DNA of 64,000 bases, from positions 80,452 to 144,451 of the forward strand of contig JAXLYJ010000019.1 in NCBI GenBank assembly GCA_046351515.1. The letters run 5' to 3'. A program made the translations under genes and the position numbers. Below the pieces are notes generated by a model. It did no database searches. It had not been told where the DNA came from and worked only from the letters and a program-made list of their open reading frames with translations. The DNA is from Polyangiales bacterium (GTDB lineage: Bacteria; Myxococcota_A; Polyangia; Polyangiales; Ga0077539). Shown here one piece after another: positions 16,958 to 64,000 of this stretch (position 1 is its first letter; every line of letters starts with the position of its first letter).

Positions 16958-17398
16958 ATGAGCGAGATCCGCAACGAACCTGGCCGCACGCCCTTCGACC
17001 TTCTGGGCGGCAAGGACGCGGTCAAAGCACTCGTCGAGCACTTCTACGACGCGATGGAAGCGCACGAGCCCAAGCTCGCCGCCCTGCATCGACTCGACGA
17101 GAACAACAAGGTCGCCCGCGAGGCGCGCGATCGCTTCGCGCTGTTTCTCATCGGCTGGCTCGGCGGCCCGCAGGACTACATGGTGCTTCACGGGCATCCG
17201 CGGCTGCGCATGCGACACGCGCGCGTGCCGGTGGACTCGACGATGCGCGACGCGTGGACGCGCTCGATGAAGCTCGCGATGGACGCAGCGAAGATCGACG
17301 GGCCCGTGCGCGCGTTTCTCGAGACGCGCTTCGCCGAGCTCGCGGACTTTCTTCGCAACACGCCGGACGGCGCGGCATCGGGTGACGGGCGCTCGTGA
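16958..17398 (+). CDS. truncated (2/2) haemoglobin, group II-like
   Basis: 146 aa. TPFDLLGGKDAVKALVEHFYDAM opening, and later a HPRLRMRHARVPV block typical of YjbI/trHbO-type globins. Confidence 0.75.
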   Translation: MSEIRNEPGRTPFDLLGGKDAVKALVEHFYDAMEAHEPKLAALHRLDENNKVAREARDRFALFLIGWLGGPQDYMVLHGHPRLRMRHARVPVDSTMRDAWTRSMKLAMDAAKIDGPVRAFLETRFAELADFLRNTPDGAASGDGRS

Positions 17399-18618
17399 AG
17401 TCCTCTCCGCTGTTCGCGATCTTTCTCGTCGTCCTGGTCGACGTGTTCGGGATGACGCTGGTGATCCCGCTGCTGGCGCCGTACGCCGAGCGGTTTCACG
17501 CGACGCCCGTGCAGGCGACGATGCTCGTGAGCGTGTACGCAGCGTTCATGCTGATCGCGGGGCCCGTGCTCGGCGCGCTCAGCGACCGCTACGGACGCAA
17601 GCGCCTGCTCGTGCTCTCTCAGCTCGGAACGCTCGTCGGCTTCATCCTCCTCGCCCGCGCCCACACGCTCTGGATGCTCTTCGTCGCGCGCGCCATCGAC
17701 GGCGCGACCGCGGGCAACCTCTCGCTTGCGCAAGCGTACGTGAGCGATCGAACCAAGCCCGAAGAGCGCACGAAGTCCTTCGCGATCGTGGGCATCGCGT
17801 TCGGCATCGGTTTCTTCATCGGCCCTTGGGTCACAGGCTCGCTGATCAGCTACGGCTACTCGGCGCCGATCTGGCTCGCCGCGGGCCTGTCGCTCACGAG
17901 CATCGTGTGCACGCTGGCGTTGCTCGAAGGGGGACCGCCGCCGCAGAAGCAGGAGCCGGGCGATGAAGGGCCGGCGGGGAGACGGCTCTCGGTGCTGTCG
18001 TGGAGCGCGTACGCCCCGTATTTTCAGCGGCCGATCCTGCGCGGCGTGCTCATCGAGCACTTTTTGTATTCGACGGCGTTCACGTGCTTCACCTCGGGCT
18101 TCTCGCTCTTCGCCGAGCGAACGTACCGGCACAACGGGCAGTTCTTCACGCCGCGCGAGGTGGGCTACGCCTTCGCGTACGCGGGGTTTCTCGGGATCGT
18201 TTTGCAAGGCGGACTGCTGGGTCGACTCGCGAAGCGCCACGGCGAAGGACGGCTCGTGCGCGCGGCGTTCACGGCGAACGTGCTCGGGTACGCGGTGCTC
18301 ACGCTCGCGCCGACGATCCCCGGGCTGATCGCGGCGACGACGATCACGGCCTTTGGAAACGGCGCGATTCGACCGAGCTTGACCGGCCTCGCGAGCCAGC
18401 AAGCGGCGCCGCACGAGCAGGGGACGGTGCTCGGGCTCGTTCAGTCGCTGAGCTCGCTCGCGTCGATCATCGCGCCCATCGTGAGCGGGACGCTCATCGA
18501 GCGGCGGTGGATGCTCGCGTGGCCCGCGCTTCCTGCGGTGCTCGCGCTCGTCGCGCTCGCCGTCGGAACGCGCGGGTCCGCCAAGACCATCGCGACGTTC
18601 GAGCCGCAGTCACGGTAG
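17395..18618 (+). CDS. MFS transporter (Tet/TCR-like, 12 TM)
   Basis: GTG 17395 overlaps the globin stop (GTGA). MFS motif A GALSDRYGRKRLL. Hydrophobic helices run throughout the 407 aa. Confidence 0.85.
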   Translation: MKSSPLFAIFLVVLVDVFGMTLVIPLLAPYAERFHATPVQATMLVSVYAAFMLIAGPVLGALSDRYGRKRLLVLSQLGTLVGFILLARAHTLWMLFVARAIDGATAGNLSLAQAYVSDRTKPEERTKSFAIVGIAFGIGFFIGPWVTGSLISYGYSAPIWLAAGLSLTSIVCTLALLEGGPPPQKQEPGDEGPAGRRLSVLSWSAYAPYFQRPILRGVLIEHFLYSTAFTCFTSGFSLFAERTYRHNGQFFTPREVGYAFAYAGFLGIVLQGGLLGRLAKRHGEGRLVRAAFTANVLGYAVLTLAPTIPGLIAATTITAFGNGAIRPSLTGLASQQAAPHEQGTVLGLVQSLSSLASIIAPIVSGTLIERRWMLAWPALPAVLALVALAVGTRGSAKTIATFEPQSR

Positions 18619-19479
18619 CGCTTCGAAGTCCTCGGGCCCGCGCGGAAGAAGCTTGGGTCCGAAGAAGTAGCTCACGATCCCGGTCATGTTGCGCACGCGG
18701 GTGTAGTTGAGCCGGCCCGTCGCGCGGTCGAAGAGAGGACGCCCCATGCGATCGGCGAGCGGGCCGATCTGCGCGGAGAGATTCACGCCGCCCACCATGC
18801 GGATTTCTCCTCGGGTCGCGGTGCTGCCCGTGGGGGTCTCGAGCATGACCTCGCCCTCGATGCGGACGAGCACGCCCACGTAGCGGTCGGCGCCTTCGAG
18901 GATCTGTTGCACTGTAGCGGGGACGATGACGGGCTCGACGCCAGTGCCCACGCGCTCGACGCCAGCGCGAGAGAACTCTGGCAACGTGCGGCCGTCGCTG
19001 AACAGACACGGCGCGCGGGGCGGCGCGCAGCACGGCGTGCAATTGAACTCGTCGTACGTACCGCCCGTGATGCTCACGGTGTCGCCCGTGAGCAGATAGC
19101 TGCCGGTGGGAATGGTCGACGGCGCGAAGAGTTGAATGCCGCACACGTGACGGCCATCCGGCATCGGCGCGCAGCCCGTGAAGGCAGGGTCTGCTACGAC
19201 CTCTTGCACCCAGATGTCGCCGGTGTTGCCGCCGGGCTCGAGGTAGTCGTCGATGGCGGTGACCACGACGTTGGAGATCGAGACGGGCCCGCCCGTGGTG
19301 GGACGCGACGCGAGATCCGCCTGACGATACGTGCGAAGTTGCCCGCCCTGCGGCGCGGGTCTGTTGCACGAGCCACGATCGATTTCGTCGCAGCGGCGGT
19401 CAGTGAGCGGCGTCGAGCACGACCACGACGAGAGCGCGGCCAGCGTGAACAATGCAATCGGAGCGGCGATCGAGCGCAC
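18610..19479 (-). CDS. hypothetical secreted protein
   Basis: Signal MRSIAAPIALFTLAALSSWSC. Non-repetitive, protein-like composition over 289 aa. No family recognised. Confidence 0.55.
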   Translation of the reverse strand: MRSIAAPIALFTLAALSSWSCSTPLTDRRCDEIDRGSCNRPAPQGGQLRTYRQADLASRPTTGGPVSISNVVVTAIDDYLEPGGNTGDIWVQEVVADPAFTGCAPMPDGRHVCGIQLFAPSTIPTGSYLLTGDTVSITGGTYDEFNCTPCCAPPRAPCLFSDGRTLPEFSRAGVERVGTGVEPVIVPATVQQILEGADRYVGVLVRIEGEVMLETPTGSTATRGEIRMVGGVNLSAQIGPLADRMGRPLFDRATGRLNYTRVRNMTGIVSYFFGPKLLPRGPEDFEALP

Positions 19480-19700
19480 GGAAGTACGCGCACGCTACCG
19501 CGACGGTGCGCGGGATGAAAGCGAGGACTGCGCCGTGGTTCGCTCGCATGGCTTGACCCACGGTGTGAGCCATGACTACCGTCCGCGCCGCTTGCGACCA
19601 TGAACGTTTCGCGCGCGTGACAGACGCGTGCAATTCAGCGGTCAAACGAGCGCCAGAAGGGCGCTTCGCACAGTCAATCTTGGTTTGGGTGACGGCAGCG

Positions 19701-21035
19701 ATGGGCAACGAGTCGAGCGGCGGATCGAAGGGACAGAAGGGGCTCGAATCCGTTCCGGGAATGAATGACGTGCTGCCGAAGGACGCGGTGCGCTGGCGCG
19801 GGCTCGAAGACAGCTTTCGCGCGGTGTGCGAGCGCTACGGCTTCGGCGAGGTGCGCACCCCGATGTGCGAGTACACCGAGCTGTTCACGCGCGGGATCGG
19901 CGAAGAGACCGACGTCGTCGCGAAGGAGATGTACACCTTCGAAGACCGCGGCGGACGCTCGCTGACCCTGCGCCCCGAGGGCACCGCCTCCGCGGTCCGC
20001 GCGTACCTCGAGCACTCGATCGCCAACGTCGAGCCCGTGGCGCGATGGTTCTACGCGGGCCCGATGTTTCGCGGAGAGCGCCCAGCCAAGGGCCGCTACC
20101 GCCAGTTTCATCAAGTGGGCGCCGAGGTGTACGGCGACGGCGGCGCGATGGTCGACGCTGAGCTCATCGACCTGGCGTACACGTTCGTTCGTTCGCTTGG
20201 GATTTCACAGGCGAAAGTGCGCGTCAACTCGCTGGGCTCCGGCGACACGAAGAAGCGCTACAGCGAGGCGCTGCGCGAGTACTACGCGCCGCTCAAGGAC
20301 AAGCTCAGCGCGGACAGCCAGCGCAGGCTCGACACCAATCCGCTGCGCATCCTCGATTCGAAGGCGCCCGAAGACGTCGCGCTGCGCGCGGGCGCGCCCA
20401 AGCTGCTCGACATCCTGAGCGACGAAGACCGCGCGCACTTCGACCGCGTGTGCGCGACGCTCACCGCGCTCGGCACGCCGTTCGAGGTCGACGCGACCAT
20501 CATCCGCGGCTTGGACTACTACACGCGGACGATCTTCGAGATCACCGACACGAGCGGCGCGCTCGGCGCGCAAGACGCGCTCGGCGGCGGCGGTCGCTAC
20601 GACAAGCTCATCGAAGAGCTCGGCGGAAAGCCCACGCCCGCCGTCGGCTTCGCGCTCGGCGTCGAGCGACTGCTCATCGCCTCCGAAGGCAAAGGAGCGG
20701 GCCCGAAGGCCCCTGCGTCGTTCGCGGTGATCGCGATCGACCGCGAGCAGCCCGAGCGCGTGCAGTCCGAGGCGCTCGTGATCGCCAAGGCGCTGCGCGA
20801 CCGCGCGATCGTGACCTTCGTCGACACCCGCTTCGGAAAGTTCGACAAGCAGATCCGCCACGCCGAGCGCTCGCAAGCGCGCTTCGCGGTGATCGTCGGA
20901 GCGCAAGAGCTCAACGACGGAGTCGTGAAGCTCAAGGACCTCGCCAAGCGTGAAGAGCGCACGATCTCGCGCGATTCGCTGGTCGAAACGGCGCTCTCAC
21001 TCCGCGCCAGCGCCGACGGGAGCGCCGCAGAATGA
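19701..21035 (+). CDS. hisS: histidine--tRNA ligase
   Basis: ATG 19701 inside ORF 19572..21035. GMNDVLP, class II motif 2 FRGERPAKGRYRQFHQ, GGGGRYD. 444 aa. Confidence 0.92.
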   Translation: MGNESSGGSKGQKGLESVPGMNDVLPKDAVRWRGLEDSFRAVCERYGFGEVRTPMCEYTELFTRGIGEETDVVAKEMYTFEDRGGRSLTLRPEGTASAVRAYLEHSIANVEPVARWFYAGPMFRGERPAKGRYRQFHQVGAEVYGDGGAMVDAELIDLAYTFVRSLGISQAKVRVNSLGSGDTKKRYSEALREYYAPLKDKLSADSQRRLDTNPLRILDSKAPEDVALRAGAPKLLDILSDEDRAHFDRVCATLTALGTPFEVDATIIRGLDYYTRTIFEITDTSGALGAQDALGGGGRYDKLIEELGGKPTPAVGFALGVERLLIASEGKGAGPKAPASFAVIAIDREQPERVQSEALVIAKALRDRAIVTFVDTRFGKFDKQIRHAERSQARFAVIVGAQELNDGVVKLKDLAKREERTISRDSLVETALSLRASADGSAAE

Positions 21036-52425: not shown

Positions 52426-55400
52426 ATGGCCAACTGCGTCGGGCGCGAGCGCGAGCTCGCCTTCATCACCTCTCGTCTCGAATCGACAGGCGCGAACGGA
52501 ACCGGCCTCGTCCTCGTGGCCGGGCCCGCCGGCATCGGCAAGTCCACGCTCCTGGCCGAGCTGCGCGAACGCTCGCGCCTCGCGGGCTTCGCCGTGCTCG
52601 AGGGCTATTGCGTGCGGCACTCAGCCTTTGCTCCGTGGACCGCGGTGGCCGCGCAAGCGCTCGCGTTTCTCAGGGCGCGCGGAGAGCACGAGCAGCTCGC
52701 GCCGGGCGACGTCGACGCGCTCGCGCCGCTCATCTCGGGCCGCGCCCCCAAAGAGCGCGAAGAAGACGACGAAGGCGCGCTGCACTTCGCCGGGGCGCTC
52801 TCTCGCCTGCTCGCGGCGGTCGGGCGCGTGCGACCGGTGCTCGTGCTTCTCCGTGGCTTTTCTCAGGTCGACGAGTCATCGCGCGCCCTCCTTCGAACGA
52901 TGCTCGACGGCGCCGGCCCCGCGGGAGAGCCCACGCCCGGCGCGCCCGCAGCGCTCATCGTCGCCGCTGTTCGCAGCGAAGAGATCGGCGAGCTGTCCGA
53001 GCACCCTCGCTCGAGCGTCGTGACGCTGGACGGACTGGACCTCGAGGGCGTCCGCAAGCTCGTCAACGACGAGGCATTTTTGCAGCGAATGCTCGCTTCG
53101 ACCGGCGGCGCTCCGGACGCGATCCTCGCGCAGGTCGATCGCCCTGCCACGTCGCGAGCAGCGGAGGCGACCTCGCGCGTGGCGCAGCTCGGCTCCGTGC
53201 AGCGCACGTTGCTCGCGGCCCTCGCGGCCGCTGGTCGTCCGCTCCCGGTGCACGTCCTGGCGAGCGCGGCGGGCGTGGACGCGACGACCGCGGCGCGCGC
53301 GGTCCCCGGGCTCGTCGACGCGAGGATGATCTGGCGCAACCTCGACGCGACCGTGGGCGACGTCGTGCTCGGACTCGAGCTGCGCGACGACGGGATCGCC
53401 GCCACGACGCTGCTCAGCGACGACGAGCGACGCGCGCTCGAACAGCGGCTCGGAGAAGTGTTCATCGAGTGGGGCAAGGTCGCCCCCGAAGAGTGGCTCG
53501 CGCACTTGCTTCGCGGTCGCACCGCGCGCGGCGCGGCCAACCGCGCGACGGAGATCGCGCAGACGTTGTTGCGCAGGCACGCCCCGGCGACGGCGATGCG
53601 CGTGGTGCTCGAAGCCGCGCAGGACGCCGACGGAGCGATGCTCGCGAAGCTCGCTCCGATCGCAGCACAGGCGGCGCGCGGCGCGGGGATGCACAGCGAG
53701 GCGCGCGCGCTCGTCGAAAAAGCGCGCTCGTTCGAGGCGGACAACCCCATGCTCTCGCGGATCGCCGCAGAGCTCGCGCTCGCGGTCGGCGACCTGGACG
53801 CCTGCGAGAGCGCGCTCGAGCGAGCGCGGGCCACGGTCGAAGGGCACAGCGACGATGAGCGCGCGGCGATCGCAGCGGTGTCGGCGGAGTATTTCTTTCA
53901 GCGCGGCGAGCTGAGCGAAGCCGAGCGGTTCGCGCACGAAGCCCTGGCCAAATCGCGCGAAGAAGCGGCGGTCCACACGCAAGCGCGCAACACCCTCACC
54001 AAGGTGTACCTCTGGCGCGGCGAGCTCGACCGCGCGTGGGATTGGTCGCAAGAGCACATCGCCCGCGCACGCACGCGAGGCGCGACGTCCGAGGTGTTGC
54101 GCGGGGTGATCAACCTCGGGGTGATCGCCGTTCGTCGCGGAGACCTCGACGACGCGGCGAGGCACTTCGAAGCGGCGCGGTCCATCGCGGCGCGCGGCGG
54201 AACGATGATGATGCGCGGGGTGCTCAAAGAGAACGAGGCCGTCCTCGCGCACCTGCGCGGCAGGTTCGGCGACGCGCTCGCGCTCTACCAAGAAGCGCTC
54301 GGAATCCTGATTCGCGTCGGCCACCGGCAGTTTCTCGCGCGCGTCGCGAACAACCTCGGCGAGCTCTACGTGCAGGTCGGCGAGACGAGCCGCGCGCGAC
54401 GATTGTGCGACTACGCGGCGCAGGTCGGGCGCGGGCTCGCGAGGGGCCTGGTGGCAGAAGGGCTGCTCTTGCGGGGGCAGATCGACCTGGCTGACGGGCA
54501 CATCGACGCCGCGCGCAGCGCGCTGCAAGAGGCGCTCTCGATGTTCGCTTCGACCGGTGAATTTGCGCGCGGATCCGAGGCGCACCTGCTCTTGGCCCGC
54601 GCGGCGCTGAGCGAAGGAGACACCCTGCGCGCGCAGCAAGCGCTCGACGTGATCCCGGATGACGAAGAGCGCTCGGGGCTGCGCGTGATCGCCGAGCGCG
54701 CGCAGGTGAGCTGCGATCTCGCGCGGGCCGAAGGACGCGACTCGCAAGAGCTCGCCGAGCGCGCGCTCGAGCTCGCCGAGCGAACGGGCGACGCGGACCT
54801 CGAGCTGCGGGCCCATGTGTTGTGCGGGCTTTCAGCGCTGGATCGCTCGGAGATCGAGCGGGCGAGGGCGCACGCGGCGGACGCCGAGCGACGCAAGAGC
54901 GAGCTGCTCGCGCGCGTGGGAGAATCGCTGCGGGTGTCTTACGACGCGACGCTGGCGAAGGCAGGGCTGCAGCGACTCGCGGCGCGACTCGATTTGGCGG
55001 CGGCCGAGTCACGGGCGCTCAAGGCTCCGGCGCCCAACGAGCGGCCCGCGCAGACCGGCGCCGAGCGCAGCGGACTCGTCGGCGAGAGCGCGGTGATGAA
55101 CTCGCTGCGCAGGCTCATCGCGCGCGTGGGGCCCGCGGACACGACCGTGCTGCTGCGCGGCGAAACCGGGACCGGAAAAGAGCGCGTCGCCGAGGCGATC
55201 CACCGCGCATCGCGCCGGCGATCGGGCCCGATGATCAAAGTGAACTGCGCCGCGATCGGCGAGGGCGTGCTCCTCAGCGAGCTGTTCGGCCACGAGCGCG
55301 GCGCGTACACAGGCGCGCACGGGCGACGCAAGGGACGCTTCGAAGCGGCCGACGGCGGGACGATCTTCCTCGACGAAATCGGTGATATTTCGCCGGCGAT

Positions 55401-56106
55401 GCAGAGCGCCCTGCTTCGTGTGCTGCAAGAGCACACGTTCGAGCGCGTCGGCGGCAACACCCCCATCCGCGTGGATGTTCGCGTGATCGCCGCGACGAAC
55501 AAGAACCTCGAAGAGGCCATGCGCGCTGGGGCGTTTCGCGAGGATTTGTACTACCGACTCGCGGACATCACCGTCCGCATCGCGCCGCTGCGCGAGCGCA
55601 TCGAAGACGTCCCGCTGCTCGCGACGCACTTCGTCGAGCTCGAGGCGCAGCAGAGCGGGCTCGAGCACAAGCGCCTTTCTGCCGCGGCGCTGCGACGACT
55701 CTGCGAGTACCACTGGCCGGGCAACGTGCGCGAGCTGTACAGCAAGATCCGCAACGCGCTGGTGATGTCCGAAGCCGATGAGATTCAGCCGGACGACATC
55801 GAGCTTCCACAGTTCGAGCCGCGGTTGGTCGAGCGAAGCTCGTCTCCCTCGATCGCGCCCCCTGCGCTCGGCGACCGCAGCGAAGTGGACGTCGTGTACG
55901 AGCGCATCCGAGGCGGGGGCGTCCCGCTCTTCGAGATGCGCAAAGAGCTCGAAAAAGGCTGCATTCAGAAGGCCCTCGCCGAAGCCGGAGGAAACATCAC
56001 CCGCGCCGCCACCCTCCTCGGCATGAAGCGCCCGCGCCTCTCGCAGCTCGTGAGGGAGTACGGACTTGCGAAGGGGACCGACCCAGGTGACACTTCGGAG
56101 TCATGA
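52426..56106 (+). CDS. sigma-54-dependent transcriptional activator fused to an N-terminal STAND-like P-loop NTPase and TPR array
   Basis: ATG 52426 inside ORF 51454..56106. N-terminal Walker A GPAGIGKST. A long helical/TPR-like middle region. C-terminal bEBP AAA+ with GETGTGKE, GAYTGA loop, GGTIFLDEIG and EDLYYRL. Fis-type HTH GGNITRAATLLGMKRPRLSQLVREYGL. Confidence 0.85.
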   Translation: MANCVGRERELAFITSRLESTGANGTGLVLVAGPAGIGKSTLLAELRERSRLAGFAVLEGYCVRHSAFAPWTAVAAQALAFLRARGEHEQLAPGDVDALAPLISGRAPKEREEDDEGALHFAGALSRLLAAVGRVRPVLVLLRGFSQVDESSRALLRTMLDGAGPAGEPTPGAPAALIVAAVRSEEIGELSEHPRSSVVTLDGLDLEGVRKLVNDEAFLQRMLASTGGAPDAILAQVDRPATSRAAEATSRVAQLGSVQRTLLAALAAAGRPLPVHVLASAAGVDATTAARAVPGLVDARMIWRNLDATVGDVVLGLELRDDGIAATTLLSDDERRALEQRLGEVFIEWGKVAPEEWLAHLLRGRTARGAANRATEIAQTLLRRHAPATAMRVVLEAAQDADGAMLAKLAPIAAQAARGAGMHSEARALVEKARSFEADNPMLSRIAAELALAVGDLDACESALERARATVEGHSDDERAAIAAVSAEYFFQRGELSEAERFAHEALAKSREEAAVHTQARNTLTKVYLWRGELDRAWDWSQEHIARARTRGATSEVLRGVINLGVIAVRRGDLDDAARHFEAARSIAARGGTMMMRGVLKENEAVLAHLRGRFGDALALYQEALGILIRVGHRQFLARVANNLGELYVQVGETSRARRLCDYAAQVGRGLARGLVAEGLLLRGQIDLADGHIDAARSALQEALSMFASTGEFARGSEAHLLLARAALSEGDTLRAQQALDVIPDDEERSGLRVIAERAQVSCDLARAEGRDSQELAERALELAERTGDADLELRAHVLCGLSALDRSEIERARAHAADAERRKSELLARVGESLRVSYDATLAKAGLQRLAARLDLAAAESRALKAPAPNERPAQTGAERSGLVGESAVMNSLRRLIARVGPADTTVLLRGETGTGKERVAEAIHRASRRRSGPMIKVNCAAIGEGVLLSELFGHERGAYTGAHGRRKGRFEAADGGTIFLDEIGDISPAMQSALLRVLQEHTFERVGGNTPIRVDVRVIAATNKNLEEAMRAGAFREDLYYRLADITVRIAPLRERIEDVPLLATHFVELEAQQSGLEHKRLSAAALRRLCEYHWPGNVRELYSKIRNALVMSEADEIQPDDIELPQFEPRLVERSSSPSIAPPALGDRSEVDVVYERIRGGGVPLFEMRKELEKGCIQKALAEAGGNITRAATLLGMKRPRLSQLVREYGLAKGTDPGDTSES

Positions 56107-56513: not shown

Positions 56514-57161
56514 TCACTCGGCGTCGTCGGTTCCGACGGCGGCGAGCTGCACGGGAAGCTTGTGCTGCATCCGGTCGCGCTTGGTCTCGAGGTACGCCAG
56601 CGAGTGCGGGTTGGGGCGAATCAGCACTGGGATCCGCCCGCGGACCTCGACGCCGAGCGTGCGAAGCGCCTGCTCTTTCTCGGGGTTGTTGGTCATCAAG
56701 CGCACCGAGCGCACGCCGAGCCAGCGCAGCATCGCCGCGCTCTGGTCGTACGTACGCGAATCGTCGGGCAGCCCGAGCTCGCGATTGGCGTCGACCGTGT
56801 CCACGCCCTGCGCCTGCAACGCGTACGCGCGGATCTTGTTGGTGAGCCCAATGCCGCGCCCCTCTTGGCGGAGATAGAGCACCACGCCGCGGCCGTTGCG
56901 CGCGATGCGGGCGAGCGCAGCTTCGAGCTGCTCGCGGCAATCGCACTTGAGCGAGCCCAACACTTCGCTGGTCAAGCACTCGGAGTGCATTCGAACGGGG
57001 ACGTCCTCGGCGCCGTTCACCGAGCCCGAGACGATCGCGACGTGCTCGAGCCCTTCAGGTTCGTGAGCGGCGCGAAACACAAAGACGTTGAACTGTCCGT
57101 GCCGCGTGGGAAGCGGCGTCTGCGCTGCGACGATGAGCTCGGGGTTGGAGCTGAGTGTCAT
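56514..57161 (-). CDS. ribA: GTP cyclohydrolase II
   Basis: RMHSECLTSEVLGSLKCDCREQL, LYLRQEGRGIGLTNKIRAYALQ, NNPEK. ATG 57161 has GGAGGA 10 nt upstream. The upstream ATG 57188 has no RBS. Confidence 0.9.
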   Translation of the reverse strand: MTLSSNPELIVAAQTPLPTRHGQFNVFVFRAAHEPEGLEHVAIVSGSVNGAEDVPVRMHSECLTSEVLGSLKCDCREQLEAALARIARNGRGVVLYLRQEGRGIGLTNKIRAYALQAQGVDTVDANRELGLPDDSRTYDQSAAMLRWLGVRSVRLMTNNPEKEQALRTLGVEVRGRIPVLIRPNPHSLAYLETKRDRMQHKLPVQLAAVGTDDAE

Positions 57162-57401
57162 CTGAAGTTCGTCCTCCGCGGATCGCATGGGCGATTCGCA
57201 ATCGGGGAGTGAGTGATGGTTGGGTCCGAAGGAGTTCCGTCTTCCGATGGAGCAGCGATGATTCGCGGATCGATCGGTACGGGTCGCAACCCTCTCCGTG
57301 AGGAGATCGCCGCGTCGGAAAGGCCCCGACGCTTGTACTACCGTGCTTCAGTACTTCGGGGACTCTACGGCGGTTACGCTGAAAGGCAACCCTCCCCTCT
57401 T

Positions 57402-58229
57402 TCACCGACCCGAGGGAAGATCTCCGAACGCCGTCGCGAGCTCGGACAGCGTGTGGGTCTTGAGCACGCCCTGCGGCAACGGCTCGAACCTCGCCGCGCC
57501 TTCGCCGCCAACAAACAGCCGAGCGCCGACGCCGCGCGTCGCCAGCGAGATCTGCTGGATCGCCTCGCGCACGCCCTCGAACGGATGAATGACCGAAAAC
57601 GAGAGCACCACCGCGCTCGGCCGCTCGGCGGCGACCATCAGCGCGAGATCGCCGATGGGGCAGCGCGCCCCGAGCATCATCGACGAGTAGCCCATGCCCG
57701 ACGCGATCACCGAGATCATTCGCAGGGCGATGTCGTGCTGCTCCTCGCCCGGCGCGGCAAAGAGGATCCGGCCGCGCGTGGCAGGCACCTCGATGAGCGC
57801 GCGCACGCGAGCGAGCGCGTCGATCACGGTCTGCGCCGCGAGGTGCTCTTGCGCGACGCTCACAGCGCCGCGCGCCCAACGCTCTCCGATGTCGACGAGC
57901 GCCGGCGTCGCGACGGTGTCGAAGACCGCCGCGAGCGTCAGGCCCTTCATGCGCAGCTGCGCGATGAGGGTCACCAGGCGATCGGCGTCGCCCGAGAGCG
58001 CGAGGCTACGAAACTGCCCGACGTAGTCCTCGGCGCCGCCGTCGGTCGAGAGCTTCTCGATCTCGTACTGGTGGCGCTTTCGAAAGTCGGCGATGTCGGC
58101 GTTGCGAAACTTTCGATGACCGCCCGGAGTGCGAAAGCACAGGAGCGTTCCCGCGTCGGCCCAACGCTTGACGGTCGCTTCGCTGACGGCGAGCAACTCG
58201 GCCACCTGACGTGTCGTGAGAATATCCAC
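57402..58229 (-). CDS. CarH/LitR-type B12-binding light-responsive transcriptional regulator (MerR/excisionase-type HTH)
   Basis: GTG 58229 inside ORF 57402..59039. HTH TTRQVAELLAVSEATVKRWADAGTLLCF. Helical-bundle signature W-x9-E-H (WARGAVSVAQEH). Rossmann B12 domain with lower-ligand ExH (GEEQHDIALRM). Confidence 0.75.
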   Translation of the reverse strand: MDILTTRQVAELLAVSEATVKRWADAGTLLCFRTPGGHRKFRNADIADFRKRHQYEIEKLSTDGGAEDYVGQFRSLALSGDADRLVTLIAQLRMKGLTLAAVFDTVATPALVDIGERWARGAVSVAQEHLAAQTVIDALARVRALIEVPATRGRILFAAPGEEQHDIALRMISVIASGMGYSSMMLGARCPIGDLALMVAAERPSAVVLSFSVIHPFEGVREAIQQISLATRGVGARLFVGGEGAARFEPLPQGVLKTHTLSELATAFGDLPSGR

Positions 58230-58350
58230 GGTGTTGAACTCTCTCTTGGCGGTTCCGATGCCGCTTCGCCGCAGTCGTTGCGGGATCGAACTTCGCCCGT
58301 TCGTGCTACCAGCGTCCCGAGCCGCAGGCTCAACGAACGGAGAAGTTGCA

Positions 58351-59475
58351 ATGAGCGGCCAATCGTCGGGCGGATTCGATGTGGTGATTGTCGGCGGGGG
58401 CTTGATGGGCAGCTTGTCGGCGCTGCGTCTGGCCGACGAGGGCAGGCGCGTCTTGGTGCTCGAAAAAGCCGTTCCGGGCGCGGAGGCGTCGAGCGCAGCG
58501 GCGGGCATCCTCGCGGGACAGAGCGAGTCGAAGACCGACGGACCGCTGTTCGACATCTCCGTCGAGTCCCGCGAGCGGTACGTCGCCCTCGCCGCTGAGC
58601 TTCGCGAGCGCGTCGGGATCGACGTCGGCTTTCGTCGCTGCGGCGTCATCGAAGTCGCCGAGACCGAACAAGCCCTCGATGAGCTCGAGCGCACGTTTGC
58701 CTGGCAACGCGCGAAGGGACACCGCGTCGAGCGCGTCGAAGCCGCGGCCCTGCGCTCGATCGAGCCGCAGCTCAACGCTGGTTTCGCCGGCGCCATCGCG
58801 CTGCCGGACGACGGACAAGTCGACCCGCCCACCCTCGTGTCCGCCATCGCGCAGGCCGCCGAGCGCGCCGGAGCCACCTTTCGCGCGGGAACCACCGTTC
58901 GCTCGGTCGTCATCGACAACGGTGTCGCGCGCGGCGTCGAGGTCGAAGACGGCCGCATCGACGCCGGCCACGTCGTGATCGCCGCAGGCGCGTGGAGCTC
59001 GCTCGTCCAAAACGCCACCGTCGCCTCGAGCGCCGTCAAGCCCGCGCGCGGTCAGATCGTCGAGCTCTCGCTGCGCACGCCGCCGTTCAAGAGCATCGTG
59101 TTTGGGCGCGGCGGATACGCGGTTCCGCGGCCCGATGGACGGGTTTTGTGCGGCAGCACGCTCGAGTTCGTGGGCTTTCAACGGGACGTCACCGTCGGCG
59201 GGCTCGCGAAGATCCTCGGGACGATCACAGGGCTGGCTCCGTCGCTCGCCGACGCGAAGGTCAACCGAACGTGGTCCAACTTCAGGCCGTTCTCGTCGGA
59301 CGGCGCAGCGCTCGTGGGTGACGCCGGCATCGCCAACCTCACCCTCGCCACCGGCCATCACCGCAGCGGAATCCTCCTCGCGCCCGCCACCGCCGAGCGC
59401 GTCCGCGCGCACGTGATCGACGGCCGCACCGACGCGAACTCACCGTGGAATCCCTCGCGCCGCGCGAGCGCGTAG
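58351..59475 (+). CDS. thiO: FAD-dependent glycine oxidase (ThiO-like, DAO family)
   Basis: ATG 58351 after GGAGAAG. FDVVIVGGGLMGS dinucleotide fold. C-terminal ATGHHRSGILLAPATAE block typical of ThiO. Confidence 0.7.
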   Translation: MSGQSSGGFDVVIVGGGLMGSLSALRLADEGRRVLVLEKAVPGAEASSAAAGILAGQSESKTDGPLFDISVESRERYVALAAELRERVGIDVGFRRCGVIEVAETEQALDELERTFAWQRAKGHRVERVEAAALRSIEPQLNAGFAGAIALPDDGQVDPPTLVSAIAQAAERAGATFRAGTTVRSVVIDNGVARGVEVEDGRIDAGHVVIAAGAWSSLVQNATVASSAVKPARGQIVELSLRTPPFKSIVFGRGGYAVPRPDGRVLCGSTLEFVGFQRDVTVGGLAKILGTITGLAPSLADAKVNRTWSNFRPFSSDGAALVGDAGIANLTLATGHHRSGILLAPATAERVRAHVIDGRTDANSPWNPSRRASA

Positions 59476-59491
59476 CCCCTCGCCGAGCGCG

Positions 59492-59722
59492 TCAGTCGTT
59501 CTCTGGATCTGGCAGCTGATCGAGGATCTCGCTCTCCTGCGGAAATCTCCCGGCTGTGTGCTTCGAGAACAGCAGCTTGCCGTCGACGATCACGTCGAAC
59601 ACGCCGCCGCCGCCCTTCTCGAGCACGGGTTGCACGCCCACTTGCTTCTCGATCGCGGCCGCGAGACTCGCGGCCCTCGGCCTGTAGTTTCAGGCCACGC
59701 AGTATCGAATCAGGATGTCCAT
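59492..59722 (-). CDS. SelW/Rdx-family selenoprotein (CxxU), in-frame TGA at 59692..59690 read as selenocysteine
   Basis: ATG 59722. Translation MDILIRYCVA-U-NYRPRAASLAAAIEKQVGVQPVLEKGGGGVFDVIVDGKLLFSKHTAGRFPQESEILDQLPDPEND, with stop at 59494..59492. The YC-x-x-U and G-x-F-[DE]-V-x-V-x-G-K-L-[IL]-[FH]-SK blocks match the SelW/Rdx family. G/C third-position bias continues across the TGA. Confidence 0.75.
59657..59675 (-). other. putative bacterial SECIS hairpin
   Basis: GGCCGCGAG-U-CUCGCGGCC is a perfect inverted repeat starting 14 nt 3' of the in-frame UGA. The apical region AGUCU contains GU. Confidence 0.6.
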
Positions 59723-59784
59723 CGAGCGCTGGACTCTAGGCTCGCAGCCTCGATCGTCCAGCGCCGATTCGCGCCCGCTCGCGA

Positions 59785-59801
59785 GTGACACAGTATGTCA
59801 C
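59785..59801. promoter_or_regulatory. 6-5-6 palindrome GTGACA-cagta-TGTCAC (candidate operator)
   Basis: Perfect inverted repeat in the 163-nt divergent region between the selenoprotein gene and the SWIM gene. Confidence 0.35.
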
Positions 59802-59885
59802 TACGCGCTGGTCACTTCCGCGGTGTTCAGCGTTATCCTCCCGGCGACTCTGCGCAATCAACGGCAGAGCAGAAGGACATCGCAC

Positions 59886-61463
59886 ATGGCCATCGAACTG
59901 ACGGGGGCAATGCTCGACGCGCTCGCGCCCAAGCCCGACGTTCTCTCGGACGCGCGCTCGATCGTGCGCGGAGGCAAGGTCAGCAAGCCGCAGAAGACCT
60001 CGGACGGATCGCTCTTGTGGGGCGCGATCAAGGGCTCTGCGAAAGAGCCGTACAGCGCATCGGTCGACCTCGCGGCCAACCCCGAGCGCCCCGTGATGCG
60101 CTGCTCGTGCCCTTCGCGGCTGCACCCGTGCAAACACGTGATGGCGCTCATGGTGGCCTTCGTCGACGGCAAGTCCTTCAGCGAGAAAGAGGCGCCCAAA
60201 GACCTCCTCGAGAAGCGAGAGAAGTACGTCGCGCGCGGCGGGTCGGCCGAGAGCCCCAAGTCCGCGCCGAAGGAAGAATCGCCGGAGAAAAAAGCGGCGC
60301 GCGAGGCCAAAGCCGAAGCGACGAAGAAGGCCGCCGCGGCGAAGAAGACCGAGATGCAGCGCGAGGCGCTCGACGTGCTCGAGAAGTTCGTGCTCGACCT
60401 CGTCTCGAGCGGCCTCGGCGGGCTCAGCGCCAAGAGCGTGAAGGCCATCGACGACCAGGCGCGACGGATGAACGACGCAGACCTTCGCGGCGCGCACGGG
60501 CTGCTCAAGCAGCTCATCGACGCGGCGACGAGCACTGCAGAAGAGAAGCCCAAGAAGAGCGCCGCGCGAAAGAAGGCCAAGAAGGGCGCAGCAGAACCCG
60601 AGGAAGCGGGAGAAGACCGAGGAGCGAGCGACCTGCTCGCGCAGCGGCACGCGCGGCTCGCGCTCACGGTGACGCGGCTGTGGGTCGCCGTCCGCAAGGG
60701 CCGCAAGGTCCTCGAGGGAAAGCTCGAAGAAGGCGACACGCAGTCCGAGTCCGACGCGCAGATGGAGTCGCTGCTCGGCCGCGCGTGGAAGCTCGCTGAG
60801 CTGCAAGAGCGCGGGTACTGGATCAAAGACCGCACGTTCGTCGAGCTCGCCCACGAGAAGAGCGACGACAAGGTGCTCGAGATCCTCGCGCACAAGGGAT
60901 ACCTGCTCGACCTGGCCGACGGCTCGGTGCACATGGAGTGGACGGGGCTTCCGTACGTCGCGCTGAGGCAAGCAGCGGCGAGCCTGCGACAGTCGCGACA
61001 CAACGTGTTGTCGGTGAAAGAGGCCGCGCTCTACCCGGGCGACGTCGTCAATCGCCGCGTGCGATGGGACGAAAAGAGCGGCGCGCTCTCGGAGGCGCCC
61101 CGCACGAGCGAGACCGTCGAGAGGCTGCGCTCGTTGGCCAGGCCCTTCGACGCCGCGGTGAAGCTCTTTCGCGAGCAGCTGAAGCACCCGCTCTCGCCGC
61201 TCGAGGCGGTGCTCTTGCTCGACGTGAAGAAGATCGGCCGCGTGGGAGAGAGCGTGGTGATCGAGGACGGAGCGGGCGCGCGGATCGTGGTGCGCGACGC
61301 GCCGTGGAGCTTCGCGACGCTCGAGAACTTTCTGCACGCAGCGGGAGCGTTCGGCGCGGGGCCGACCGCAGTGCGGCTGTGGTTCGACGCGAAAGAGCGC
61401 TTGATCTACGGCCAGCCGCTCGCGCTGTTCGCGGGCGATCGCCACGTTCGTTTGGGTCTGTGA
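59886..61463 (+). CDS. SWIM zinc-finger protein with Lys/Glu/Ala-rich linkers
   Basis: ATG 59886 after GAAGGA. SWIM CxCx6CxH in RCSCPSRLHPCKHVMAL. Two charged low-complexity linkers. A ~300-aa C-terminal domain of unknown family. Confidence 0.75.
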   Translation: MAIELTGAMLDALAPKPDVLSDARSIVRGGKVSKPQKTSDGSLLWGAIKGSAKEPYSASVDLAANPERPVMRCSCPSRLHPCKHVMALMVAFVDGKSFSEKEAPKDLLEKREKYVARGGSAESPKSAPKEESPEKKAAREAKAEATKKAAAAKKTEMQREALDVLEKFVLDLVSSGLGGLSAKSVKAIDDQARRMNDADLRGAHGLLKQLIDAATSTAEEKPKKSAARKKAKKGAAEPEEAGEDRGASDLLAQRHARLALTVTRLWVAVRKGRKVLEGKLEEGDTQSESDAQMESLLGRAWKLAELQERGYWIKDRTFVELAHEKSDDKVLEILAHKGYLLDLADGSVHMEWTGLPYVALRQAAASLRQSRHNVLSVKEAALYPGDVVNRRVRWDEKSGALSEAPRTSETVERLRSLARPFDAAVKLFREQLKHPLSPLEAVLLLDVKKIGRVGESVVIEDGAGARIVVRDAPWSFATLENFLHAAGAFGAGPTAVRLWFDAKERLIYGQPLALFAGDRHVRLGL

Positions 61464-61484
61464 TCGGAGAGGAGCGGTAATCCT

Positions 61485-63332
61485 ATGGCTAAAGAAGTTC
61501 TTCGCGATCTCGACGCCGACGTCACTCGATTGCTGGTCGCGGGCGCCTCGCTCGCCGCCGCGGACGAGGGCCTCAACGAGCGCAAAGGAGCGCTCAAAGA
61601 GCTGGCCGCCAAGGCGCCAGCGCTCGCCAAGGTCTCTTCTCAGCTCGAGGCGCTCACCGCTGCCGCGGGGCGCAAGAGCGCGAGCGAGCTGCTCAACCTC
61701 GCGGCGATGAGCGCGCAGATCCGCGGAGCGCAAGCGAAGCCCGCGGACGGCGCAGGAGCGTTGAGCGCGATCGAAGCCCGCGAGCCGATGGACAGCCCGC
61801 TCGGCAGCATCGCAGCGGACAAGATCTTCAAGGCGCTCACGGGCACGTCCGACGAACCCGAGAACGTGCTCGAGACCGCGCTCAACGAGAACGGCGTAGT
61901 GGACCTGCGGTTCGCGAGGCTCGTTCCGAACCTGGTCGGCGGCGGGATCGATGACGAGATCGTCGTGAAGGTCGTGAAGTCCTACGGCGAAGAAGCGGTC
62001 CGCGCGATCGAGCGCGAGTTCGACCCGAAGGGCGGCTACGGGGACACCACGCGTCTCACGATCATCGTCGAGGTCCGTGGAAGGGCGGCGCTCCCGCTGG
62101 TCGAAAGCTCGTTCAACGACGGCAGCCCCGAGGTGCGCTGCGAGGCGCTGACGCTGTGGAACAAGCTCGACCCCGAGCGGGCCCTTCGCGTCGCGCTCGA
62201 CCGCGGGATCAAAGACAAAGCCGACGACGTCGTCAACGCCGCGACGGCGATCTTGGGCGAGGCCCACAACAACGACGAGGCGCTCGAGGCGCTGCTGCAC
62301 TTGCTCGTGAGCCGCGGGGATTCGCGCTGGTCTGTGATCAGCGCGCTCAACGCGTTCAAGCACGACAAGCTCAGCGCTCGGCTCGAGGCGCTCTTCACGC
62401 CCGAGCTCCGCTCGATCACGGAGTACAAGTCCCCCAAGGCGAAGAAGGGCGCGAAGGCGGTCACGGGCTCTGCCGCGAAGGCGGCGAAAAAAGAAGAAGA
62501 GAAGCGGATGCGCGAGCACTACGAGAAGGCGAACCTCGCCGAGGCGCTCGCGGGCCTGCTCGGGCAGCATTTCACCGCGCAAGGCGAGGACCTGCTCTTC
62601 GAGACTTGGAAGAAGGCCACCTACCTCGATCTGAAGTACGCCGCTGGCGAAGCGCTCGCGAAGACCACGCGCGACGACATTCGCAAAGAGATCATGAAGG
62701 GCATCGAGACGAAGAACTACCGCGAGCGCGAGATCGCGGTCACGATGCTCATGGCGGACAAAGAGAAGGCCGTCGAGCGCGCGAAGCCGTACTTCGACCC
62801 GAAGAAGCTCAAGGACAAAAAGAGCGCGTACATCGCCGCCTCGATCCTCGACCACATCGAGAGCCTCTGCGAGTACGACGACGACGGAAACATGGTCTTC
62901 AAGGACCTGGACCCGCGGTGGGGAGCGGTGATCTTCGCCGCGTTCTTCGAGAAGACCACGCGATGGACCGCGACGCAGATCCTCGCGGCGCTCAAGCACC
63001 CTGGGCTGTTCGACGAGCTCGCGAAGCTCGTGCACGAGCCGGCCAACTCGAACTACGCGCTCGAGCAGATGGCCGCGCTGAAGGACCCGCGCTCGCTGGC
63101 GCTGGTGCTCGAGCTGATGGCTGACAAGAAGGTCTACGGCAGCGTCACCGCGGTGCGCCGCTATGCGAGCGGCATCGCCGACGTGCTGCGCGCGTTCGAC
63201 GACCCGAGCACCGCCGCGCCGCTGCGCGCGTTCGTCGCGGAGATCGACAAGCGCAGCAAGAGCAAGGGCCGCCGCGAGTGGTACCTGAACAACCTCGACA
63301 ACGTCGCGCTGCACCTCGAGCGCGCGCGCTGA
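61485..63332 (+). CDS. HEAT/ARM-like repeat protein
   Basis: ATG 61485 after GGAGAGGAG. Helical repeats (DGSPEVRCEALTLWNKL, DDVVNAATAILGEA, REREIAVTMLMAD). Lys-rich insert KSPKAKKGAKAVTGSAAKAAKKEEEKR. 615 aa. Confidence 0.65.
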   Translation: MAKEVLRDLDADVTRLLVAGASLAAADEGLNERKGALKELAAKAPALAKVSSQLEALTAAAGRKSASELLNLAAMSAQIRGAQAKPADGAGALSAIEAREPMDSPLGSIAADKIFKALTGTSDEPENVLETALNENGVVDLRFARLVPNLVGGGIDDEIVVKVVKSYGEEAVRAIEREFDPKGGYGDTTRLTIIVEVRGRAALPLVESSFNDGSPEVRCEALTLWNKLDPERALRVALDRGIKDKADDVVNAATAILGEAHNNDEALEALLHLLVSRGDSRWSVISALNAFKHDKLSARLEALFTPELRSITEYKSPKAKKGAKAVTGSAAKAAKKEEEKRMREHYEKANLAEALAGLLGQHFTAQGEDLLFETWKKATYLDLKYAAGEALAKTTRDDIRKEIMKGIETKNYREREIAVTMLMADKEKAVERAKPYFDPKKLKDKKSAYIAASILDHIESLCEYDDDGNMVFKDLDPRWGAVIFAAFFEKTTRWTATQILAALKHPGLFDELAKLVHEPANSNYALEQMAALKDPRSLALVLELMADKKVYGSVTAVRRYASGIADVLRAFDDPSTAAPLRAFVAEIDKRSKSKGRREWYLNNLDNVALHLERAR

Positions 63333-63395
63333 GCGCCGCGACACTTGAATTCGTGAGCGACATTCAACACAGAGACGCTGGAGACTGACGCAGTC

Positions 63396-64000
63396 ATGGC
63401 CAAAGAGAGCAGCACGAACACACCGAGCAACGCCGTCCTCCGCGAGCCCGCTGAGCGGCTGTACGCGGCGGAGCTCGCCGCGCTCGAGAAGGCGGACAAG
63501 CACGCGAAGCCCACTGGGTGGAGGCTGTCTCCGCGCGCGGTGGAGACGTACATCCTCGGCGGAGAGATCGCGGGCACGACGATTTCGCCGAAGTACTTGG
63601 GCGCGCCGCGGCTCGTGCAGATCGCGATCGCGACGCTGGCCACAGACCGAGCGCTGCTCTTGATCGGCGAGCCGGGGACGGCGAAGAGCTGGCTGAGCGA
63701 GCACTTGTGCGCGGCGATCACGGGCGACTCGCAGCTGCTCGTGCAGGGCACGGCGGGCACCACGGAAGAGCAGATCCGCTACTCGTGGAACTACGCGCTC
63801 TTGCTCGCCGAAGGCCCCACGCAAAAGGCCCTGGTCCCCTCGCCCGTCTACCGCGCGATGGAGAACGGGCGGATCGTCCGCTTCGAAGAGATCACGCGCA
63901 CGCCGAGCGAGGTGCAGGACGCGCTGATCACGGTGCTCAGCGAGAAGGTGCTCTCGGTGCCTGAGCTCGGGTTGCACGTGCAAGCGCGCAAGGGCTTCAA
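63396..64000 (+). CDS. MoxR-like AAA+ ATPase (AAA_5 type), 3' end outside window
   Basis: ATG 63396 after GGAGA. It is not in the ORF track because no stop falls inside the window. Walker A LLLIGEPGTAKSWL. Walker B/sensor region RIVRFEEITRTPSEVQDALITVLSEK. Confidence 0.8.
   Translation, partial: MAKESSTNTPSNAVLREPAERLYAAELAALEKADKHAKPTGWRLSPRAVETYILGGEIAGTTISPKYLGAPRLVQIAIATLATDRALLLIGEPGTAKSWLSEHLCAAITGDSQLLVQGTAGTTEEQIRYSWNYALLLAEGPTQKALVPSPVYRAMENGRIVRFEEITRTPSEVQDALITVLSEKVLSVPELGLHVQARKGF

Follow-up and report, generated by a model that had tools for sequence, protein, structure and literature searches.

A MoxR-family AAA+ motor stands beside a partner protein whose von Willebrand factor A (VWA) domain carries a metal ion-dependent adhesion site (MIDAS) in RavA-ViaA, CbbQ-CbbO, NorQ-NorD, CoxD-CoxE and CobS-CobT, and the clients of the known pairs are Rubisco, nitric oxide reductase (NOR), carbon monoxide dehydrogenase (CODH), Complex I/LdcI and cobyrinic acid. 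Few AAA+ systems are as widespread as the MoxR-VWA pairs and as poorly understood. Seven subfamilies of MoxR are recognised (PMC3893208), namely YehL, MRP, RavA, CGN, APE0892, APE2220 and PA2707, and no function is assigned to the YehL branch in the literature searched, although it is core in Escherichia coli K-12. The same pairing of motor and MIDAS-VWA partner is seen in relatives of the gene cluster described here, which begins at position 59886 of a 64,000-nt stretch (the window) of contig JAXLYJ010000019.1, from genome assembly GCA_046351515.1 of a Polyangiales bacterium. The host, which is myxobacterium-like, belongs to the communities of activated sludge and wastewater. As judged from sequence, the three genes found in the window are predicted to be the first three of a five-gene operon encoding, in this order, a SWIM protein, a HEAT-repeat protein, an AAA+ ATPase, DUF5682/YehM and VWA/YehP.

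In E. coli K-12, the gene order is yehL (AAA), yehM (DUF5682), yehP (VWA) and yehQ (SWIM), downstream of yehF/yehH/yehI (WGR and DUF4132) and yehK, and one chromosomal copy of yehLMPQ is carried by 5353 of the 5426 complete E. coli genomes (98.7%). The literature searched assigns no function to any yehLMPQ, DUF5682 or DUF4132 protein, nor to a combination of SWIM, MoxR and vWA proteins, in keeping with an earlier reading of the window made from its sequence (the original prediction), in which the cluster was called uncharacterised. Cassettes of this kind are already known from database annotation and from the classification of MoxR subfamilies. The SWIM, HEAT, AAA, DUF5682, VWA arrangement is the commonest form of the YehL-type cassette, and no description of it was found in the literature searched.

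Genes in the window

Three genes on the same strand were read off the open reading frame (ORF) listing and directly from the sequence between 59886 and 64000. Gene 1 (59886..61463, + strand) encodes a SWIM-domain protein of 525 amino acids (aa; 57 kDa, isoelectric point (pI) 9.3), gene 2 (61485..63332, + strand) a HEAT-repeat protein of 615 aa (67 kDa), and gene 3 (63396..64000, + strand) the 5' part, 201 of ~369 codons, of a MoxR AAA+ ATPase (AAA_5), probably of the YehL subfamily. The ORF calls agree with the original prediction of intergenic gaps of 21 nt (genes 1 and 2) and 63 nt (genes 2 and 3), with the last gene cut by the window end. The ribosome-binding site (RBS) claimed for each gene was also located, namely GAAGGA for gene 1 (59872..59877, + strand), 8 nt before the ATG, GGAGAGGAG upstream of the gene 2 start, and GGAGA upstream of the gene 3 start. 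The block GAGCAGAAGGAC at the gene 1 RBS is kept in 5 of 5 aligned relatives. A longer gene 1 ORF could start at 59715, yet the 525-530-aa orthologues all cover 100% of the protein from the 59886 start.

Scans of the 59400-64000 region revealed no same-strand terminator between the genes and no sigma-70 promoter-like site, which is compatible with a single transcript but does not prove it. Metatranscriptomes yielded only a few short contigs, which map within the 3' part of gene 2 and are not enough to demonstrate transcription as an operon, and an exact-sequence look-up of gene 2 gave no match on record.

Conservation of the five-gene cassette

Genes 4 and 5 lie outside the window and were read from relatives, chiefly the loci L001 and L002. 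The window proteins 1, 2 and 3 are 93%, 92% and 99% identical to those of L001, and both L001 and L002 carry the same upstream genes as the window. After the HEAT gene, L001 includes genes for AAA_5 (369 aa), DUF5682 (859 aa) and VWA_CoxE (407 aa) proteins, and because L001 and L002 both continue with these three families, the unit is taken to be a five-gene operon. A VWA gene had been expected just downstream of the MoxR gene, and it was found in L001, L002, L005, L007 and more than 60 further cassettes. The largest component, DUF5682/YehM, and the E. coli yehLMPQ counterpart had not been foreseen.

A scan with an alignment of the AAA protein, using one genome per species, gave at least 585 confirmed loci. 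Among the best 80 of these, the AAA proteins are 60-92% identical, and the hosts belong to Myxococcota, Planctomycetota, Acidobacteriota, Bacillota (Clostridia, Paenibacillus), Spirochaetota, Fusobacteriota, Bacteroidota and Desulfovibrio. Synteny was assessed by iterative hidden Markov model searches on six-frame ORFs of all 85 loci. The order SWIM, HEAT, AAA, DUF5682, VWA was found exactly in 58 of the 85, distributed over eight phyla, and the remaining loci are mostly cut by contig ends, carry two to four HEAT paralogues in tandem or have SWIM and HEAT in reverse order. The synteny in relatives anticipated for the cluster therefore recurs across phyla, far beyond chance. Recurrence in Myxococcota, which had also been suggested, was borne out directly; for Actinobacteria the support is indirect and consists of tblastn matches to DUF5682 in Streptomyces, Nonomuraea and Nocardia records.

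Apart from antisense shadow ORFs, no further conserved neighbours were detected across 80 loci. The 142 proteins encoded nearest to ~44 cassettes, two on either side, form a mixed set that includes chemoreceptors, kinases, YebC and methyltransferases, with defence-like genes or integrases only sporadic. The original prediction had named a pathway-specific MoxR with its enzyme genes adjacent as the contrary case. No cognate enzyme of CoxD, NorQ, CbbQ or GvpN is adjacent in the relatives or the window, and the upstream genes of the window (sigma-54 activator, RibA, MerR-type regulator, FAD oxidoreductase and Rdx) include no client of this type. Given that no client gene is conserved, the cassette ATPase is not considered to be a pathway-specific MoxR chaperone. 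Median pairwise identity falls from 0.75 for AAA through 0.60 for VWA, 0.51 for DUF5682 and 0.41 for SWIM to 0.25 for HEAT, the fastest-evolving component, and this gradient fits a conserved motor with variable recognition parts.

A few Clostridia cassettes include inserted genes that are unrelated. An ORF of ~535-566 aa lies between HEAT and AAA in L015 (8267-9967) and L018 (8361-9968) and between HEAT paralogues in L081 (2146-3822), and appears to resemble the 'predicted AAA-ATPase + PD-(D/E)XK' family. Another insertion in some Clostridia cassettes, between SWIM and HEAT, encodes a small membrane protein. Apparently fused proteins were also met in the databases, AAA_5 with DUF5682 in P0112 (Minicystis sp., 1179 aa) and VWA with SWIM in P0221, P0283 and P0284 (E. 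coli). These fusions may be real but were not used as evidence, since the genes abut or overlap and a frameshift or gene-calling error could produce them.

The AAA+ ATPase, VWA and DUF5682 proteins

Gene 3 had been proposed to be of the MoxR/AAA_5 type, and the fragment scores far above the AAA_5 cut-off (102 bits against 22; 133 bits for the full-length L001 orthologue). The Walker A motif GEPGTAKS (63666..63689, + strand) and the Walker B motif VRFEE with the acidic pair E164-E165 (63876..63890, + strand) were located in the window, and sensor 1 (TANTRD) and the arginine finger (ALKRRF), which lie beyond base 64000, were read from the 99%-identical L001 protein. GEPGTAKS, RfEEItR, TANTRD and ALKRRF are each at least 95% conserved across 67 cassettes, and the Walker A, Walker B, sensor-1 and arginine-finger motifs of the cassette ATPase all appear intact. 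The L001 orthologue is 44% identical to E. coli YehL over its full length (E 2e-94). As judged by this identity and the weak scores of the other MoxR models compared, gene 3 probably belongs to the YehL subfamily. The bpMoxR model PF20030 gave 23.3 bits, under its cut-off of 27, and covered the P-loop region only, and no propeller gene, as in MoxR-vWA-beta-propeller systems, is present in the cassettes. For the window proteins, NCBIfam gave no meaningful match, the GvpN and MadB models being far under their cut-offs. The solved structures closest to the AAA protein by sequence are the AAA domains of Midasin/Rea1 (E 5e-16), and the MoxR structure 2r44 follows at E 2e-4.

The VWA protein includes a complete MIDAS, DQSGS...GGGT...DLYEGG (DxSxS...T...D), and its motifs DQSGSM, GGGT and DLyEgG are at least 95% conserved in the same 67 cassettes. 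A conserved RWRLxLG motif is found at its N-terminus, and a profile search against Protein Data Bank (PDB) sequences returned nothing. In L003, from a Myxococcales metagenome-assembled genome (MAG; GCA_016793325.1), an 883-aa Cys-rich, Gly-rich repeat ORF (17187-19838) occupies the place expected for the VWA gene. None of the five cassette proteins has a transmembrane segment.

The AlphaFold2 (AF2) model of DUF5682 has a mean confidence (pLDDT) of 84 and a predicted template-modelling score (pTM) of 0.80, and consists of an alpha/beta domain (residues 50-300), a mixed region and a helical repeat (534-843). When the N-terminal domains of 37 diverse members were scanned singly, 11 matched PF04187 (ChaN; best E 3.3e-5) and 8 matched PF01963 (TraB/PrgY/GumN; best E 7.5e-4), and the remaining matches were DUF445 in two members at E 0.14 and singletons. 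In 122 sequences, residues G55, R57, H58, E82, D86, E127, D145, E197, E201, R221, R237, E238, M241, G263 and H266 are at least 99% conserved, and the invariant set of the N-terminal domain reads GxRH…E…RExxM…GxxH. The order GxxH...E...R...GxxH is presumably the catalytic signature of the Tiki and erythromycin-esterase hydrolases, unlike the haem ligands of ChaN. An hhalign comparison of the DUF5682 N-terminal domain with the single sequence of the E. coli TraB-family protein YbaP was colinear, though weak (E 0.007, probability 6%). Sub-threshold family matches and motifs together suggest that the N-terminal domain of DUF5682 is Tiki/TraB/ChaN-superfamily-like, an assignment that was not met in the literature searched and is new here. 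PF18934 was the sole match of DUF5682, with no match to CobN-Mg_chel at E<=1.

The SWIM and HEAT proteins

The gene 1 protein consists of an N-terminal beta-sheet and SWIM module (aa 1-95), a helical bundle (aa ~101-309) that includes two disordered K/E/A linkers, and a C-terminal double beta-barrel (aa 310-525), with no transmembrane segment predicted. The zinc-finger core C73-S-C75-x6-C82-K-H84 (60102..60137, + strand) is invariant in 47 of 47 aligned family members, and CxC..CxH is at least 95% conserved across the 67 cassettes. The window protein itself scores 16.9 bits against PF04434, under the gathering score of 19.6. The SWIM finger claimed for this gene is nonetheless a sound call, as the signature is invariant, 8 of 10 distant orthologues exceed the gathering score, and the AF2 model matches the ZSWIM8 chain 9rwz_M (probability 0.99). 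The pLDDT of the model is 87 overall and drops below 50 at residues 121-130 and 219-243, which coincide with the two Lys/Glu/Ala-rich linkers previously described as disordered. For gene 1, 94 homologues were found, with identities of up to 93%, and its family comprises 584 clusters at 50% identity (E<=1e-30).

The C-terminal beta-rich domain (60813..61460, + strand) includes a conserved YPG..NRRVRW motif and is modelled with pLDDT mostly >90. The best Foldseek matches of its barrels are RPA70 DBD-A/B and the HIN domains of AIM2/IFI16/p202, all weak (E 4e-3 to 1e-2, probability 0.72-0.94), and RADX and SSB are also among the matches; the template-modelling (TM) scores of these OB matches are <= 0.35. 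From this weak resemblance in the model, the double barrel is possibly a pair of tandem oligonucleotide/oligosaccharide-binding (OB)-like folds. The domain is missing in the SWIM proteins of DUF5691-type and yeh-type cassettes.

The description of gene 2 as HEAT-like with a Lys-rich insert likewise holds: gene 2 reaches 33.9 bits with HEAT_2 (gathering score 27.7), and the insert lies at ~aa 313-345. An acidic residue, D140, is invariant in the HEAT family. Several cassette HEAT proteins match PBS-lyase HEAT repeats. The HEAT gene varies in copy number from 1 to 4, with tandem paralogues in some cassettes. Loci with 2-4 tandem copies are L043, L058, L071, L075, L080 and L081; a Desulfovibrio MAG has three copies, Pseudoflavonifractor sp. 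60 has four, and L081, which is covered in part, shows three. These tandem paralogues echo the tandem DUF4132 genes yehH and yehI upstream of yehL in E. coli.

Related cassette types

The AAA, DUF5682 and VWA proteins are orthologous and encoded in the same order in the window-type and E. coli yeh cassettes. The L001 DUF5682 protein is 31% identical to YehM over the N-terminal domain (E 4e-27), both matching PF18934 end to end, and the L001 VWA protein is 35% identical to YehP over its full length (E 1e-76). The SWIM gene, in contrast, is first in the window-type cassette and last in E. coli. Gene 1 aligns with YehQ through its N-terminal ~85-residue SWIM module alone (hhalign E 0.0031, probability 10%), and YehQ has two SWIM fingers and a different remainder. 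A full-length homology of gene 1 and YehQ was rejected, the BLASTP comparison being not significant. No YehK homologue is present in the window-type cassette, and the DUF4132/WGR proteins found upstream in E. coli are likewise absent from it. The K-12 YehQ (L004, 19101-20945) is annotated with 614 aa, whereas the dominant E. coli clusters, 95-99% identical over the whole query, are 666-672 aa long (P0219, with 11,049 member sequences, and P0222); the K-12 protein may be a shorter form or reflect a different start call.

A five-position layout like that of the window is also found in the SWIM-DUF5691-AAA-DUF5682-VWA cassettes of Deinococcus taeanensis p_TS293_3 and Rhizobium sp. K102 pRSpK102d. 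Over their first ~200 residues, the SWIM proteins of these cassettes show clear homology to gene 1 (hhalign probability 99.5-99.8, E 2.7e-23 and 2e-29), and they lack its C-terminal double beta-barrel. Thus, the SWIM N-terminal module, the YehL ATPase, DUF5682 and VWA are constant across cassette types, and gene position 2 is a variable slot occupied by HEAT, DUF5691 or DUF4132 according to the type. Gene 2 itself was not accepted as a DUF4132 protein (BLASTP against YehI negative, hhalign not significant, 0 of 10 orthologues matching DUF4132 at E<=1) or as a DUF5691 protein, hhalign and Pfam being negative and no relation of DUF5691 to the HEAT family detectable.

Upstream region and neighbouring genes

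A perfect palindrome, GTGACA-N5-TGTCAC (GTGACACAGTATGTCAC, 59785..59801), is located ~85 nt before the gene 1 ATG, in the intergenic region from which gene 1 and a small minus-strand Rdx-family gene diverge. L001, L003, L005 and L006 all retain it (consensus GTGACAyAnTATGTCAC) within intergenic DNA that is otherwise divergent, with indels; it occurs once in the window, a count not above chance. The palindrome is a candidate operator of the cassette operon. The gene for a B12-binding MerR-type regulator lies 1.5 kb upstream of it. GTTCAGC, also upstream of the cassette and partly like the Myxococcus LexA box, was rejected as a sign of SOS control, as it is not conserved in L003 or L006. The sole exact LexA/Cheo box (GAACGTATGTTC) among the cassettes is in L069 (~6204-6215), from a Paenibacillus nanensis MAG, ~180 nt upstream of the SWIM gene.

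Further upstream, a 1226-aa sigma-54 activator protein (~52426-56106, + strand) combines an N-terminal half of STAND-like AAA_16 and MalT-type TPR with a sigma-54 activator AAA domain and HTH_8, an unusual architecture for an enhancer-binding protein; it has the same position in L001, L002 and L003. It is followed by genes identified by synteny with the L001 annotations, namely GTP cyclohydrolase II RibA (56514-57188, - strand), the CarH-like B12-binding MerR regulator (~57403-58230, - strand), an FAD-dependent DAO-type oxidoreductase (58351-59475) and the 49-aa Rdx-family ORF (~59492-59641, - strand). The genes from RibA to Rdx (56514-59641) may form a light/B12-regulated module.

Proposed mechanism and alternatives

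We read the cassette, with a probability of roughly 60%, as encoding a single soluble, ATP-driven and self-contained MoxR-VWA remodelling machine of the cytoplasm, composed of a motor pair, a hydrolase or scaffold, and SWIM and HEAT subunits for target recognition. Judging by the analogous systems RavA-ViaA, CbbQ-CbbO, NorQ-NorD, CobS-CobT and Midasin, the mechanical force would come from a YehL hexamer, and the VWA subunit would hold a partner or target by one of its acidic residues, through the metal of the MIDAS. DUF5682 would serve as a scaffold and probably as a metal-dependent hydrolase (peptidase or esterase) or a subunit handling a metal or cofactor. The SWIM/beta-barrel protein and the fast-evolving HEAT protein would select or present the target, which may be a protein or a nucleoprotein. 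A more specific and rather unlikely form of this remodelling machine is a bacterial regulated-hydrolysis machine not recognised before, in which SWIM and swappable solenoid receptors recognise the target, the MoxR-MIDAS pair unfolds or extracts it, and a Tiki-like DUF5682 metallohydrolase cleaves it, in stress-linked quality control or as an immune sensor of a new, nucleoside triphosphate (NTP)-dependent class. Its part list (AAA+ ring, VWA, solenoid and metalloprotease) would be a loose parallel to the proteasome lid and base or to Midasin, and if the hydrolase were real, it would represent a kind of AAA+-coupled processing machine not known before.

Several points weigh against the remodelling machine or parts of it. 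The two downstream genes are absent from the window sequence and known from relatives alone, and the VWA gene is not always at hand: L003, a 78% identical relative, has none within 4.4 kb of DUF5682, and in L005 it is 1.8 kb away. The PF04187 and PF01963 matches of DUF5682 are all below gathering scores, and the superfamily assignment consists of these plus the motifs. A whole-model Foldseek search of DUF5682 against the PDB gave non-significant helical-repeat matches only, with no Tiki-fold structure, and a profile search against PDB sequences gave nothing. ChaN is a haem-binding protein and not an enzyme, and by analogy the DUF5682 N-terminal domain could bind rather than hydrolyse. The gene 1 C-terminal domain bears a weak likeness to OB folds (E >= 3.6e-3, low TM). 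The assembly of a complex, its ATPase and hydrolase activities and its target are all things that we infer, and the literature searched contains no experiment on any cassette member.

It is unlikely, though it deserves attention, that the cassette is instead an NTP-dependent anti-phage or conflict system, in which SWIM and HEAT sense the invader, MoxR-VWA transduces the signal and the Tiki-like domain of DUF5682 is the effector protease or hydrolase. Modules of the MoxR-vWA type have been proposed to serve in conflict systems, and Pfam PF20030 covers the MoxR domain of 'MoxR-vWA-beta-propeller ternary systems', but here bpMoxR stays under its gathering threshold and the beta-propeller gene is absent. 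The cassette is self-contained, without conserved neighbours and in varied genomic contexts, and its patchy spread with AAA proteins still 60-66% identical across Myxococcota, Clostridia, Treponema, Fusobacterium and Bacteroidota suggests horizontal transfer. As against this, yehLMPQ is core-like in E. coli (5353 of 5426 genomes), unlike typical defence systems, and DUF5682 turned up in a single one of 50,697 phage records; among 72,556 plasmid records it turned up in 42, and the plasmids listed are mostly several hundred kb to Mb in size. The single phage record (MT835988.1, 10560-12755) has a full-length DUF5682 at 38.6% identity on a 14-kb unannotated 'Bacteriophage sp.' contig from human faeces, and is probably a bacterial (clostridial) fragment misfiled as phage. 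A recognition-like HEAT protein that evolves fast (0.25) and has 1-4 paralogues, in a slot that is swapped between cassette types, would suit a sensor of invaders; a classical toxic effector (nuclease, TIR or pore former) is missing from the cassette. A few cassettes adjoin AbiL-like or MADS-like genes or integrases, yet the commonest defence families each match only 2-3 of the 142 flanking proteins. The three window proteins had no match in PADLOC-DB v2.0 at E<=0.01, in a scan confined to these three. The conflict or surveillance role raised in the original prediction thus gained no positive support from PADLOC, E. coli core status, flanks or phage records.

Less probable again is a remodeller for DNA damage or nucleic acids, in which the SWIM/OB-like protein binds single-stranded DNA, RNA or nucleoprotein and MoxR-VWA dismantles or processes it under stress. 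Gene 1 is basic (pI 9.3) and the top Foldseek matches of its C-terminal domain are tandem OB nucleic-acid binders, but this likeness is not significant (E >= 3.6e-3, TM <= 0.35), and as the SWIM proteins of other cassette types do without the domain, a common mechanism cannot depend on it. Midasin, the closest solved relative of the AAA protein, remodels ribonucleoprotein particles. The E. coli cluster is directly downstream of molR/yehF-yehH-yehI, which encode WGR and DUF4132 proteins; molR is counted among the genes of the LexA regulon and has a known SOS box (PMC6590174), and the radiation-desiccation regulon of DdrO in Deinococcus radiodurans includes a WGR protein and a DUF4132 protein (PMC8533742). 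Co-transcription of yehLMPQ with molR is, however, an assumption, the window cassette includes no WGR or DUF4132 protein, and the LexA/Cheo box GAAC-N4-GTTC was found upstream of 1 of ~65 cassettes, no more than background. There is a small chance that the cassette directs chelatase-like maturation by metal or cofactor insertion, comparable to CobS-CobT-CobN, BchI-BchD-BchH, NorQ-NorD and CoxD-CoxE, in which the ChaN-like DUF5682 domain would bind a metal or tetrapyrrole. AAA_5 with VWA is the CobS/CobT cobaltochelatase module, and MoxR/VWA pairs mature the metal centres of NOR and CODH. The cassette VWA protein belongs to VWA_CoxE, the haem-binding ChaN family is the best Pfam match of the DUF5682 N-terminal domain, the PBS-lyase HEAT repeats point the same way, and the E. 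coli neighbour gene was historically named 'molybdate metabolism regulator'. Nevertheless, no client metalloenzyme or cofactor pathway gene is conserved beside the cassette in ~80 loci, DUF5682 includes no CobN/BchH-type domain, the GvpN and MadB matches are far under their cut-offs, and the invariant GxxH/E/R/GxxH set is the Tiki/erythromycin-esterase signature and not that of the ChaN haem ligands. That the three genes are merely adjacent and do not belong to one system is refuted by synteny, with the order kept in 58 of 85 loci over eight phyla and the genes separated by short gaps or overlapping.

The remodelling machine offers several points of attack. The architecture has five fixed positions with one variable 'specificity' slot, DUF5682 includes a probable catalytic or metal site (H58, E82, H266 and others) that can be mutated, and the SWIM protein has, in its model, a possible nucleic-acid-binding domain. 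Orthologues are present in E. coli, Paenibacillus and Clostridium, and hence standard genetics and biochemistry are applicable.

Comparison with known systems

The known MoxR-VWA pairs are two-component and client-linked, whereas the cassette adds three dedicated subunits and has no conserved client. Midasin likewise joins AAA_5 modules, a MIDAS domain and helical linkers, and pulls factors off a large particle. It is, however, a single eukaryotic polypeptide of ~4,700-4,900 residues with six fused AAA modules, while the cassette encodes its parts as individual proteins, and nothing in Midasin corresponds to the SWIM and Tiki-like ones. With the Tiki/TraB/PrgY/GumN/ChaN/erythromycin-esterase superfamily, DUF5682 shares the GxxH...E...R...GxxH order in matching secondary-structure positions. 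Unlike that superfamily, DUF5682 has its N-terminal domain fused to a ~550-residue mixed and helical-repeat region, carries the unique motif MPYSxxRLSxxSGYGAGNxAPxY, and is invariably encoded in linkage with MoxR genes and almost invariably with VWA genes.

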